Shown: positions 41,431 through 45,992 of the stretch, piece by piece | How the letters are laid out: each line of letters starts with the position of its first letter | How positions within the stretch are numbered: the first letter of the stretch is position 1 | DNA from: Candidatus Niyogibacteria bacterium | GTDB taxonomy: Bacteria > Patescibacteriota > Minisyncoccia > JACROR01 | Direction of reading: 5' to 3' | Length of the DNA stretch: 64,000 bases | Assembly (NCBI GenBank): GCA_016214345.1 | Contig: JACROR010000009.1 | Location: forward strand, 241-64,240 | The notes under the pieces: generated by a model | What the model was told of the DNA's origin: nothing | The model's database searches: none | The model's input: only the letters and a program-made list of their open reading frames with translations | Made by a program: the position numbers and the translations under genes

Positions 41431-41832
41431 CTAGCCGACATCCTCCGTAAACCTCATTTTAGCTTTTTTATTGGCCACATCCACAAATACCGCCAAAATA
41501 TCAATTTGCCACTCTTGATCTTGTTTCACATTTTTATACCCCAAGTACGACTGAATCACACTATTTAATCTTTTCAATTTAAAATAATTAACGTTGTCTT
41601 CCGGATCCACCTCCCGCCCCCTATCGGAAACTCCATTTCCGTTATCTTTGCAAGAAACAGACTTAACTTCTACAAAATGTAAGATGCCGGACTTTTGCGC
41701 CACGATATCAATTTCTCCCCAAGGCCTCCTAAAATTTCTATCTATAACGGCATAGCCATTCTTAATTAAATATTTTGCCGCCATATTCTCGCCCAGCGCG
41801 CCAATAAATTTTTTAGTATTATTCAGCGCCAT
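41431..41832 (-). CDS. YraN/UPF0102 family endonuclease
   Basis: GEIDIVAQ...HFVEVKS PD-(D/E)xK motifs; a REP copy lies in-frame in the variable loop. Confidence 0.75.
   Translation of the reverse strand: MALNNTKKFIGALGENMAAKYLIKNGYAVIDRNFRRPWGEIDIVAQKSGILHFVEVKSVSCKDNGNGVSDRGREVDPEDNVNYFKLKRLNSVIQSYLGYKNVKQDQEWQIDILAVFVDVANKKAKMRFTEDVG
41624..41641. repeat. REP copy a (tcggaaaCTCCAtttccg)
   Basis: Shares the palindromic core found in copies b-e. Confidence 0.7.
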
Positions 41833-41859
41833 AAATAATATGTTTCATATGAAACAAAC

Positions 41860-42597
41860 TTAGAGTTTATTGCCAAATAAGGCTAAATCTATATCTGACA
41901 ATTCTCCGCCCAAAATATCATTAATAAGAATCTCTAAATCTTTGTAACTCTCCATTATGTCCGACAAACTGCCCCTATCAGTAACAAAATTAAAAGCGTC
42001 CTTTCCTCCCATGGCCGATCGATAACTTGAGTATTTATAATTTTCTAAAAATCGTTTGGCTTCTTTGATGTTGTCTATGCCGCGTTCTTTCCAGTCGGAT
42101 TTATAAAGATTCAGGGCATTGGTAAGAATATAAACCAGAACATGCTGTAAATGCGCGCCCTTGTCGGCTAATTTAACTTTGTATGGCCCCTGGAATAAAG
42201 CACCGACACGCTGGTATTTTTTGTTAAATCCTTTGGTATAAGCCACTGAAATACGCTGCATAAAATCACTAATACTGCCGTCTTTAATGGATCTTACTAA
42301 AATATGAAAATGATTAGGCATCAAAGTAAAGGCCGCAACATCTACTAGTCTGTCTCTGTTATCTGAAGAAAAATTGACTTCTTTTATTCTTTTTTTAAAA
42401 GCGGTGTCCGGCAAAGTTACAAAATTATTACATTCATATAAATGAAACAAAAAACGAGCATAATCCTCATTATCTAAAAATATCCGGCGTTTTTCTACGC
42501 CACGATTATAAACATGATACCACTCATTATTTACCAGATCTCTCATAAATTTAATGATAGCATACAAAAAATCTGTAGAAAACGTCGGAAACTCCAT
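41860..42597 (-). CDS. REP-associated tyrosine transposase (RAYT; IS200/IS605 Y1 HuH family)
   Basis: WYHVYNRGVEKRRIF; HuH motif LMPNHFHILV; REP copies flank the gene and one encodes its start codon. Confidence 0.75.
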   Translation of the reverse strand: MEFPTFSTDFLYAIIKFMRDLVNNEWYHVYNRGVEKRRIFLDNEDYARFLFHLYECNNFVTLPDTAFKKRIKEVNFSSDNRDRLVDVAAFTLMPNHFHILVRSIKDGSISDFMQRISVAYTKGFNKKYQRVGALFQGPYKVKLADKGAHLQHVLVYILTNALNLYKSDWKERGIDNIKEAKRFLENYKYSSYRSAMGGKDAFNFVTDRGSLSDIMESYKDLEILINDILGGELSDIDLALFGNKL

Positions 42598-42603
42598 TTC
42601 CGG
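42585..42603. repeat. REP copy b
   Basis: tcggaaactccatttccgg; overlaps RAYT start codon. Confidence 0.7.
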
Positions 42604-42834
42604 TTGTACTTTAACGCGCTGTCTTTTATATCATGTCCAATAAACTAATAGTCCAATAGATTTTTTAGAGAAATTAACAAGATATGCACACAATAAATGT
42701 TTCATGTGTAACTATTTAATTATTAGACTGTATAGCGTCGCATTTCGCGCCACATCTCGCAGCATAGCGAAGATTCCGAATGAATGTAATGTGAAGAGCA
42801 GACAAAAACATAGTCGCTACGCTCTTAGTTTTTA

Positions 42835-42905
42835 TGGACCCGGGGGGAATCGGACCCCCGCCTCAGCAATGCGAATGCTGCGTAATGCCACTTTACTACG
42901 GGCCC
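42835..42905 (-). tRNA. tRNA-Ala(CGC)
   Basis: Acceptor gggcccg/cgggtcc with G3:U70, anticodon stem cagca/tgctg, loop ttCGCat; T-loop TCCGATT. Confidence 0.85.
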
Positions 42906-42910
42906 CTTTA

Positions 42911-42981
42911 TCGGGGTGCTGGGAATCGAACCCAGACTACAGACTCCCGAAGCCTGCGTACTGCCACTATACTACACCCCG
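42911..42981 (-). tRNA. tRNA-Pro(CGG)
   Basis: Acceptor cggggtg/caccccg, anticodon loop ttCGGga, T-arm ctgggTTCGATTcccag. Confidence 0.85.
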
Positions 42982-43009
42982 TTAAGTTTCACATGAAACA
43001 TCCACCTTA

Positions 43010-44544: not shown

Positions 44545-44729
44545 ACACTTTGCGCGACCTAAAAAACAAGGAGCGGAGCGACTATGTTTTGGGAAGTACT
44601 CTTGTGGTGCGCCCGGCAGGACTCCTCGTGCCTCTTATCGCGCGAGCCGAGGTTTGTCGGCACCTACGGCGCAACGCTAAACCCTTCGAGTCCTGACGCA
44701 AGCAAAACAATTTGCTTGCTCCTGTCTTG

Positions 44730-44802
44730 CGCGCCCGGCAGGACTCGAACCCACAACCCCTTGGTCCGAAGCCAAGTGCTCTATCCATTGAGCTACGGGC
44801 GC
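44730..44802 (-). tRNA. tRNA-Arg(TCG)
   Basis: Acceptor gcgcccg/cgggcgc, anticodon stem cttgg/ccaag, loop ctTCGga. Confidence 0.8.
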
Positions 44803-44971
44803 TTTTTAACTTAATAAAAGGCACTACCTTTTGTTGCGTCGTCGCTCGCCTGCCTGCCGGTAGGCAGGAACGAAGCGTGATCCGCCGACTGGCGGACATT
44901 CCGCTCCTCGCTAGACGCAATAAACAATGTAAGAGTACCACATTTTAACCTATTAAACAACTGCGTATAAT

Positions 44972-44996
44972 CTGTCGGAAACTCCATTTCCGACAG
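44972..44996. repeat. REP copy d (10-bp stem: ctgtcggaaaCTCCAtttccgacag)
   Basis: Perfect palindrome with 5-nt loop, 10 nt downstream of xerC-like gene stop. Confidence 0.75.
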
Positions 44997-45005
44997 ATTG
45001 TATTT

Positions 45006-45926
45006 TCATCGCCTTTGTTTCCCGTGAAACGCCGCATGGACTTCACGAAGCTGTTTATCGGTTACGTGGGTATAAACCTGCGTAGTGGTGATGTTGGCAT
45101 GGCCAAGCAAAGCCTGCACCGACCGCAGATCGGCTCCATTGGATAACAAATCGGTCGCGAAACAATGACGAAGCACGTGCGGAGTTACTTTTTTGGAAAT
45201 GCCTGCTTTGATCGCGTAATATTCAACCATCCTCTCCACTGAACGGGGAGTCAAACGAGCGGTGTCGCTTAATTTATCTTTCCCACCGCGCCTGAAATTT
45301 ATAAAAAGCGCTTCTCCCAGGTCGCCTCGTTTATCCAAATATTCTTTAACGGACAACTTCGCGCTATCGGACAAGAAAACCACTCTCACCTTCTCTCCTT
45401 TCCCGCGCACCGAAAACTCTCCTTTATTTAAATTAAAAGAGTCGCGATTTAGCGCGCAGAGCTCGGATACGCGAAGTCCGGTAGAAAATAAAAGTTCCAA
45501 AATAGCCTTGTCCCGTAACGATTTTAACGATTTCTCCTTCGGAGCATTGAGCAAACGCTCCAATTCATCCTCATCTATCAGGTCAAGCTCTCTGCCGCCA
45601 ACCTTAGCGAGCTCGATCCTGTCGGCGGACAAAGACGGAATACCGCGCTTGGCCAAATATTTCAAGAAACCGCGCAAACCTATCAAATAATAATTCTGGG
45701 TTTTTTTCTTAATATTTTCTCCGGATGGTATTTCTTGTCTATTTAACCATAAACGATATTGCCTAATAAGTTCGTCGGTAATATCTTGCGGCGATCTGAT
45801 CTTGGCATAATCCAAAAAACGCGCGAGGTAGCGATCATAATTCTCCACGGTGCGGAGACTGCGGCCCTGCTCTATTTCCAAATGCTCCAAGAATTCTTTA
45901 TGTAAAACACGAATATCGCCTGACAT
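45006..45926 (-). CDS. tyrosine recombinase, XerC/XerD family
   Basis: R...HxxR...Y catalytic residues in HVLRHCFATDLLSNGADLRSVQALLGHANITTTQVYTHV. Confidence 0.85.
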   Translation of the reverse strand: MSGDIRVLHKEFLEHLEIEQGRSLRTVENYDRYLARFLDYAKIRSPQDITDELIRQYRLWLNRQEIPSGENIKKKTQNYYLIGLRGFLKYLAKRGIPSLSADRIELAKVGGRELDLIDEDELERLLNAPKEKSLKSLRDKAILELLFSTGLRVSELCALNRDSFNLNKGEFSVRGKGEKVRVVFLSDSAKLSVKEYLDKRGDLGEALFINFRRGGKDKLSDTARLTPRSVERMVEYYAIKAGISKKVTPHVLRHCFATDLLSNGADLRSVQALLGHANITTTQVYTHVTDKQLREVHAAFHGKQRR

Positions 45927-45967
45927 ATTATTATTTTATCACATTTTTAAACACAATGTCGCACAAT

Positions 45968-45992
45968 TTGTCGGAAATGGAGTTTCCGACAA
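45968..45992. repeat. REP copy e (inverted relative to d)
   Basis: ttgtcggaaaTGGAGtttccgacaa, 42 nt upstream of xerC-like start. Confidence 0.75.

Follow-up and report, generated by a model that had tools for sequence, protein, structure and literature searches.

Gene content of the locus

We analysed 64,000 nt of contig JACROR010000009.1 from Candidatus Niyogibacteria bacterium (Patescibacteriota), hereafter the window, and describe within it a locus at 41391-45992 where a gene for a Y1 transposase-like enzyme of the HUH kind (the Y1 gene) lies among copies of a short palindrome, H1. The locus is probably a unit of this one enzyme and its cognate hairpin, comparable to the systems known as REPtrons and TIRtrons, here in a member of the Candidate Phyla Radiation (CPR). 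Its minus strand carries, in order, tRNA-Gly, tRNA-Pro(tgg), yraN (UPF0102), the Y1 gene, tRNA-Ala(cgc), tRNA-Pro(cgg), cca, tRNA-Arg(tcg) and a gene for a XerA/XerD-type recombinase. A preliminary description of this DNA had placed the five tRNA genes, cca, the Xer-like gene and the Y1 gene, and each is found at its place. A second palindrome, H2, is also present. The palindromes, the Y1 gene and yraN are as follows.

41391-41416, plus strand: variant H1 copy, outer stem GTCGGA/TCCGAC with a 14-nt loop, between the yraN stop and tRNA-Pro(tgg)
41431-41832, minus strand: yraN/UPF0102
41624-41641, plus strand: H1 copy a, in frame within yraN and 220 nt downstream of the Y1 stop, coding for NGNGVSD
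41842-41855, strand not assigned: H2, 5 nt past the Y1 stop and 10 nt ahead of the yraN start, kept in both sister lineages
41860-42546, minus strand: Y1 gene, class-2 Y1 HUH protein of 228 aa from M18; the open frame runs to 42597
42584-42604, plus strand: H1 copy b, 36-58 nt upstream of the Y1 start, in a promoter-proximal slot common across the family
42699-42712, strand not assigned: H2 with 1 mismatch, upstream of Y1 and after tRNA-Ala
42986-42999, strand not assigned: H2, between H1 copy c and tRNA-Pro(cgg)
43009-43029, minus strand: H1 copy c, between the cca stop and tRNA-Pro(cgg), with H2 10-12 nt further on
44969-44999, plus strand: H1 copy d, 13-bp stem, 14 nt past the xer stop
45968-45992, minus strand: H1 copy e, 10-bp stem, between an intrinsic terminator (46012-46040) and the xer promoter

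The H1 palindrome and its clustering

The window has five exact occurrences of the 18-mer TCGGAAACTCCATTTCCG, copies a to e, with their cores at 41624-41641 (+), 42585-42602 (+), 43011-43028 (-), 44975-44992 (+) and 45972-45989 (-). Its core consists of the arms TCGGAAA and TTTCCGA around a 5-nt asymmetric loop, CTCCA, that does not vary. A sixth copy, GTCGGACCCGTCGATCCACTTCCGAC at 41391-41416, is a variant that keeps the canonical outer stem around its longer loop of 14 nt. Thus the five CTCCA-loop palindromes of the preliminary description are confirmed, and one variant is added to them. Folded as single-stranded DNA, copies a and b form stems of 6 bp, c of 8 bp, e of 10 bp and d of 13 bp; the limit of 10 bp given earlier fits copy e and is exceeded by d.

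Chance would give 0.11 occurrences of the 18-mer in the window, and not one shuffle in 100 had as many as five. The six copies are confined to 4.6 kb, for which uniform placement over the window gives P ~2e-6, and the two other tRNA clusters of the window have no H1. Beyond the five exact copies, nothing more was found in the 64 kb at two or fewer mismatches. Matches with four mismatches at 8322 and 47334 are without the repeat arms and were counted as chance. The window contains no inverted doublets of the REPIN or BIME kind (REP doublet hairpin and bacterial interspersed mosaic element, REP being the repetitive extragenic palindrome); its closest inverted H1 pairs are 408 and 961 nt apart.

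Three conventional identities for the palindromes were considered and rejected. H1 is not an intrinsic terminator, as it has no T-tract, and the genuine local terminators, such as the one at 46012-46040, have a GC-rich stem and a T-run. Neither H1 nor H2 resembles a sigma-70 promoter, of which a real example (TTGACG-N18-TATAAT) lies upstream of tRNA-Gly. A tRNA leader element is likewise rejected, given the other tRNA clusters without H1 and a copy between lysS and mraZ in a related genome (see below). A scan of the whole window at Rfam gathering thresholds returned 14 tRNAs only, with no RNA family over H1 or H2.

The Y1 protein

The preliminary description had correctly put the Y1 gene between copies a and b, but gave it the whole open frame, 41860-42597. 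Forty homologues and the deposited annotation of 228 aa agree on a start at M18 (42546). The idea that copy b encodes the start of the protein, as ATG-GAG-TTT-CCG, therefore falls, copy b lying 36-58 nt upstream of M18.

The protein matches Pfam Y1_Tnp (PF01797) at 36.5 bits, against a cutoff of 23, and carries the motifs NHFH, LFQG, Y156-ILT-N160 and YSS. In the alignment of 40 homologues, 213-250 aa in length, the HUH histidines H96 and H98, the tyrosine Y156 and N160 are invariant, and the consensus reads LMPNHFHIL / LFQGxFK / YIHLNP / YxYSS. The class-2 signature Y---NP is present here as YILTNA, which retains Y and N and has A in place of P. The YHVYNRG segment formerly singled out as the Y1 signature is indeed a conserved N-terminal motif, but the catalytic tyrosine is Y156, in VYILTNA. 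At 50% identity the family comprises 1,931 clusters (E <= 1e-30).

Structural comparison pointed to one relative above others. A single-sequence phmmer search of the Protein Data Bank (PDB) gave no relevant match, and a profile search gave E. coli TnpA_REP (4ER8) as the best, at E 0.025. The AlphaFold2 model (predicted local distance difference test score, pLDDT, 90.9) had 4ER8 as its top Foldseek match (E 2.9e-5, probability 1.00), followed by ISDra2, IS608 and IS200 transposases, of which 2XO6 and 2VJV also scored probability 1.00. C-terminal residues 177-241 are helical in the model, and a Pfam scan of the protein at E <= 0.01 found no Bac_DnaA_C, HTH_23 or HTH_28 domain. No second Y1 copy was found in the 64-kb window, and no tnpB was seen near the Y1 gene. 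Because of the Y...N motif, the single copy, the lack of a tnpB seen nearby and the best structural match to 4ER8, the protein is supported as a class-2 Y1 HUH enzyme on the side of TnpA_REP, that is, of the REP-associated tyrosine transposases (RAYTs), and not as a canonical IS200 TnpA. To this extent the preliminary description's reading of the protein as a RAYT is supported.

Within class 2, Quentin et al. (2018; PMC6006769) characterise subclass 2.1 by a median length of ~238 aa, the motifs NH[YF]H, FQ and Y[IV]HLNP, and serines in a motif that follows the tyrosine; they equate it with the TIRYT proteins, which are associated with TIRs, and with group 1 of the RAYTs of Bertels et al. (2017). 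Matched to this motif table, and by its motifs only, the protein would belong to subclass 2.1, as a TIRYT-like enzyme. Subgroup 2.1.2 is heterogeneous in its C-terminal region (PMC6006769).

Distant homologues have private hairpins

We compared nine loci with homologues 33-44% identical to the Y1 protein, eight from CPR and one from Nitrospirae. Gene neighbourhoods differ in all nine and consist mostly of housekeeping genes. Each Y1 gene is accompanied by a private hairpin whose sequence differs by genome; examples are TACAAGGGTAACCCTTGTA, ATCCAAGGAGCCTCCTTGGAT, CACGAAGGCCTTGCCTTCGTG, TATGGAAGTCGGACTTCCATA and CGGAAGTTAGACTTCCG. The hairpin starts 41-64 nt ahead of the start codon, a range that includes copy b of the window, which begins at -58, and the same hairpin or a variant recurs at or just past the stop. 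Five of the nine loci have an additional hairpin in frame within the Y1 open reading frame (ORF), at +157 to +194 or at +471. There is no such internal hairpin in the window's Y1 ORF, only a weak GAAG/CTTC remnant seen by eye near +160.

The pairing was scored by asking for a 15-mer (one mismatch tolerated) common to the 120 nt upstream of a gene and its stop region, with ORFs of at least 150 aa as controls. Seven of nine Y1 genes were positive, against 3 of 108 other ORFs, and those three all adjoin a Y1 gene and share its hairpins. The two Y1 genes that the test missed, in loci L075 (a variant hairpin) and L078 (a hairpin of 40 nt), have hairpins that were seen by eye. Additional copies in the homologue loci stay within ~1 kb or a few kb of the Y1 gene, and L075 has REPIN-like inverted doublets with spacers of 20-37 nt.

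Pairing of the Y1 gene with a private hairpin is thus a property of the whole family, and the local clustering in the window is typical of it too. Since distant homologues each have a private hairpin at equal gene-relative positions, the H1 palindromes are very probably the cognate hairpins of the window's Y1 protein.

The in-ORF hairpins code for a recurrent peptide, QGxxL (CAAGG-NNN-CCTTG), found at L072 6149, L073 298, L075 10166, L076 10157 and L079 10472. This peptide motif may be a by-product of constraint at the DNA level.

Sister lineages and turnover of H1 copies

Three lineages could be compared over the locus: that of the window, the Patescibacteria metagenome-assembled genome (MAG) H32-bin003 (H32), and a lineage from Logan assemblies (L068-L071 and L081) that was reached by way of a Y1 protein 79% identical to that of the window. 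Their tree is ((H32,Logan),window): the two sisters are 87-89% identical to each other in nucleotides, and 77-86% identical to the window. The order tRNA-Ala - Y1 - yraN is kept in all three, while nucleotide identity in the Y1 gene is only 77-87%.

Individual H1 sites have had different histories. At copies a and c the core is exact in all three lineages and the flanks have substitutions and indels; the stem base of copy c shows a compensatory A-T versus G-C difference between lineages. Logan has copy b with one mismatch and an empty site d, and in H32 copy b has decayed. Site e, canonical in the window, is occupied in Logan by a long-loop variant, TGTCGGGCCTATCGGTCCATTTCCGACA, the long-loop form of H1 being written TGYCGGRCCTATCGRTCCATTTCCGACA. 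Conversely, the site between yraN and tRNA-Pro has the long-loop type in the window and Logan and the canonical 18-mer in H32. These comparisons indicate occasional gain, loss and homogenisation of H1 copies rather than a set of static sites.

The 18-mer was also searched for in 185,579 species-representative genomes, where multiple matches occurred in one other genome only, H32-bin003; H32 has a further copy there, between lysS and mraZ. Another 32 genomes gave single matches in unrelated phyla, close to the ~17 chance matches estimated for an 18-mer in 596 Gb. A metagenome scan returned 31 singleton contigs and no multi-copy contig, which is chance level.

Contigs 15 and 17 of H32-bin003 (L026 end and L020 start) abut inside yraN at copy a, and H1 repeats appear to break short-read assemblies of CPR.

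The second palindrome, H2

H2 (GTTTCATATGAAAC / GTTTCAYATGAAAC) has three copies in the window, at 41842, 42699 (one mismatch) and 42986. Each sister lineage has four, without exception between the cca stop and the yraN start. H2 brackets the Y1 gene and stands 10-12 nt from H1 at site c, and in Logan at site b too. H2 may represent a further repeat subfamily belonging to the Y1 unit, or a regulatory or processing site.

Interpretation of the locus

We interpret the locus as a REPtron/TIRtron-type unit in Patescibacteria, consisting of one catalytically intact class-2 Y1 HUH enzyme and its cognate hairpin H1, and give this a probability of roughly 0.6. Underlying it are the clustering of H1, the fold and catalytic motifs of the protein, the pairing of gene and hairpin across the family, and the turnover of copies. 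By analogy with TnpA_REP and IS200/IS605 TnpA, the Y1 enzyme would bind the H1 hairpin when it is extruded on single-stranded DNA, and would cut and rejoin near the hairpin foot by means of an HUH-bound metal and Tyr156. Occasional copying or templated repair could then seed H1 nearby, in intergenic spacers and in one tolerant loop of yraN, and by the same route the copies at occupied sites could be homogenised or exchanged for variants. Copy b and the palindrome at the Y1 stop would probably also regulate or delimit Y1 expression.

Several points weigh against this interpretation. Binding, cleavage and mobilisation of H1 by the Y1 protein are inferred. The copy number is low: there are five H1 copies and one variant in the window and none elsewhere in its 64 kb, not the tens to hundreds of a REP. 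The preliminary description had read the palindrome as a REP, to be checked by a genome-wide count, and counting did not favour this, given a full scan of H32-bin003 that found four exact copies on three contigs, three of the four in the syntenic locus, and the chance-level singletons of the metagenomes. No GTAG or GTGG, the GT[AG]G foot of REPs, stands next to the stem in any of 12 aligned H1 copies. Over the same number of copies the stem-base pair covaries (GC 8, AU 2, GU 1, UA 1, unpaired 0), a point in favour of the interpretation, but the signal is statistically weak, its score being reached in 52 of 500 shuffles. The protein scores 31.5 bits against the RAYT equivalog REP_Tyr_transpos of NCBIfam (NF047646), below the cutoff of 80. 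Quentin et al. found no REP-like sequences beside subclass 2.1 genes in their survey (PMC6006769). Among the homologues, the relative orientation of the flanking hairpins varies between genomes. In the window lineage the palindrome directly 3' of the Y1 stop is H2, not H1, and either is a candidate for the primary substrate. Lastly, the exact conservation of copies a and c could equally be explained by selection for another role. Of the classical REP-plus-RAYT arrangement, a RAYT-side protein and, very probably, cognate hairpins are present; high copy number, foot, doublets and equivalog score are not.

It is also possible, though unlikely, that the CPR-centred family is no transposase family at all, and that a host-maintained enzyme has co-evolved with a private hairpin at its own promoter, ORF and stop. 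Such a self-targeting module, acting on hairpins in single-stranded DNA, could serve autoregulation or the processing of hairpins at replication forks, with the extra copies as by-products. In that event the subclass 2.1 Y1 proteins would gain a defined cognate DNA.

That the hairpin-Y1-hairpin segment is a low-activity IS200-like insertion sequence, with the flanking palindromes as its two subterminal ends, left and right, and the other H1 copies as solo ends or derivatives resembling miniature inverted-repeat transposable elements (MITEs), strikes us as distinctly unlikely. An insertion sequence would fit with the one hairpin that, in most homologue loci, stands both shortly ahead of the Y1 start and at its stop, with neighbour genes that differ in every homologue genome, and with a Y1 fold common to the TnpA of IS608 and ISDra2. 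Other features speak against it. Y1 is single-copy in the window and nearly all homologue clusters are on one or few contigs; the Y...N(P) motif and the C-terminal tail are those of class 2, versus Y...Q in class 1; and no tnpB was seen nearby. Moreover, the tRNA-Ala - Y1 - yraN site is stable in three lineages that are 77-87% identical in the gene, and several homologue loci pack Y1 between housekeeping genes with spacers of 17-50 nt.

We regard as quite improbable the view that the palindromes are host regulatory or RNA elements, such as operators of a dimeric regulator or hairpins for mRNA 3'-end formation or processing, without catalytic relation to Y1. Their positions lend it some appeal: copies c and d each lie 14 nt past a stop codon, c and the variant each immediately upstream of a tRNA-Pro gene, and copies b and e at or just upstream of a promoter -35 region, and the H1 and H2 cores are conserved islands within diverging spacers. 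Parts of the REP literature describe secondary roles of this kind for E. coli REPs. Yet it would leave unexplained both the clustering at Y1, with the other tRNA clusters free of H1, and the private hairpins of distant homologues at start, stop and ORF interior. H1 is found in both orientations relative to transcription; one copy stands between a true terminator and a promoter, another is within an ORF, and no T-tract follows H1; the invariant asymmetric CTCCA loop would be needless in a symmetric operator. Regulatory or RNA-level roles may coexist with a REPtron/TIRtron-type unit.

We give next to no credence to copies d and e as dif-like or inversion sites at which the Xer-like recombinase flips or excises the xer segment: they are inverted, 97% complementary across 29 nt, and bracket the recombinase gene, but the recombinase is a housekeeping Xer, Logan is without copy d, H1 also occurs at four window sites unrelated to xer and at lysS-mraZ in H32, and, where tyrosine recombinase sites have ~11-bp arms around a central region of 6-8 nt, H1 has arms 5 nt apart and six copies rather than one site per replicon.

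Y1 enzymes of the RAYT/TIRYT type are widespread, single-copy and vertically inherited, and subclass 2.1 is the largest, with no cognate DNA defined for it so far; the locus is a compact, testable case for its function. Set in minimal-size genomes, it and its relatives combine a single gene with one or two palindromes in fixed places relative to it, plus a few extra copies whose gain, loss and switching between variants can be traced from one sister lineage to another. It also suggests a simple rule that could be tested on homologues by the thousand, with hairpins expected ~45 nt ahead of the start codon, ~160 nt inside the ORF and at the stop, and it supplies defined oligonucleotides as substrates for biochemical work.

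Neighbouring genes and other repeats

The Xer-like protein scores above the NCBIfam cutoff for the XerA type, and its counterparts in many Patescibacteria are 65-77% identical; by these comparisons the xer gene is a conserved housekeeping chromosomal recombinase of CPR. Since it is so, and Logan is without copy d, the inverted bracketing of the gene by d and e, correctly described as geometry in the preliminary description, is incidental. We take the tRNAs, cca and xer to be housekeeping neighbours whose spacers would have been colonised, outside the system proper.

In YraN, the segment encoded at copy a (NGNGVSD or VGNGVSD) is found in this clade only (P0241-P0243) and is missing in YraNs 56-59% identical. 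Its place in the protein is a loop of hypervariable length in the YraNs of CPR.

The tRNA-Gly gene lies within a 25-nt inverted repeat (41018-41042 / 41140-41164), so that leader and trailer could pair, and has upstream a near-consensus sigma-70 promoter, TTGACG-N18-TATAAT (~41218-41247). Both the repeat and the promoter are kept in all three lineages.

A third repeat family is found directly 3' of tRNA genes, with core AAAACATAGTCGCTNCGCTC and arms CAAAAACA/TGTTTTTG, at 2943-2999, 42802-42858 and 44553-44620 of the window and at 1755-1830 of L068. The copy after tRNA-Ala(cgc) lies within an insertion of ~105 nt that both sister lineages lack. Downstream of tRNA-Arg, an insertion of ~166 nt, missing in Logan, repeats the 3' end of the tRNA including CCA, as GAGTCCTGCCGGGCGCACCA at ~44617-44636 followed by CAAGAGTACTTC; Logan has a comparable insertion (CCACAAGAGTACTTC...) after tRNA-Gly. 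The family looks like a small element, or a trailer hairpin, that targets tRNA 3' ends.

A GC-rich palindrome, CTGCCTRCCGGYAGGCAGG, occurs at 44841-44868, 28664-28691 and 7957-7984. The copy at 44841 is in a GC-rich insertion of ~100 nt between copy d and tRNA-Arg, and Logan is without this insertion.

Elsewhere in the window, an exact direct repeat of 83 nt (9050-9132 / 9179-9261, spaced by 129 nt) starts inside the 3' end of tRNA-Leu(gag); an att-like duplication and a tRNA trailer present twice are both possible. Two tRNA-like segments, at 18320-18359 and 18504-18537, match the neighbouring tRNA-Arg(tct) and tRNA-Val(tac) at 83-91% identity and were called by neither ARAGORN nor Rfam. Just upstream of tRNA-Phe, a 25-nt inverted repeat, 96% complementary (18033-18057/18144-18168), encloses 86 nt. 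At 62767-62827, the 18-nt unit ATYTAGCCCTGCCACAGK stands three times in tandem.

Comparison with known systems

IS200/IS605 transposases such as those of IS608 and ISDra2 share with the Y1 protein the HUH/Y1 fold; hairpins are substrates in those systems, and here too there is a palindrome at each end of the gene. Those TnpA proteins have Y---Q, are ~150 aa long, multi-copy and frequently accompanied by tnpB. The protein here has Y---N and 228 aa with a C-terminal tail, its gene is single-copy with no tnpB seen nearby, and its syntenic position is stable across lineages.

In REPtrons, the E. coli enzyme YafM (4ER8) has the closest solved fold, REPtron enzymes belonging to subclasses 2.2, 2.4 and 2.5. 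As in REPtrons, a domesticated-like, single-copy gene is flanked by cognate hairpins (here copy b at -58, H2 after the stop, and copy a 220 nt downstream), and the hairpin sequence tracks the protein lineage. In-frame intragenic insertions of REPs are known in REPtrons, and the CPR relative L075 has REPIN-like doublets. Unlike REPtrons, the locus has copies in units, locally clustered, rather than in tens to hundreds; it lacks the GT[AG]G foot, doublets and BIMEs are missing from the window, and the score of 31.5 bits falls short of the 80-bit RAYT equivalog cutoff.

TIRtrons, with their TIRYT enzymes, were described by Di Nocera et al. (2013; PMC3733652) as having flanking repeats that are self-complementary and occur in few copies per genome. 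The locus likewise has flanking inverted or self-complementary repeats with few other copies. It shares with TIRtrons a single-copy class-2 Y1 protein of about 230 aa with NH[YF]H, FQ, Y[IV]HLNP and the serine motif, and repeats at fixed short distances from the gene, in some cases self-complementary or overlapping its ends, with few or a moderate number of extra copies. Unlike TIRtrons, it has a host in Patescibacteria/CPR, is without the GGGGWSAS motif, and has a C-terminal region, helical in the model, with no Pfam match to DnaA_C or HTH at E <= 0.01; many members of the CPR family have an in-frame hairpin in the Y1 ORF; and the locus has one H1 within yraN and a second palindrome family, H2. 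Because we found no literature linking RAYT-type systems to CPR/Patescibacteria, and the survey of subclass 2.1 was without hairpins, the CPR clade is an extension of the known REPtron/TIRtron kind rather than the founder of a new one.

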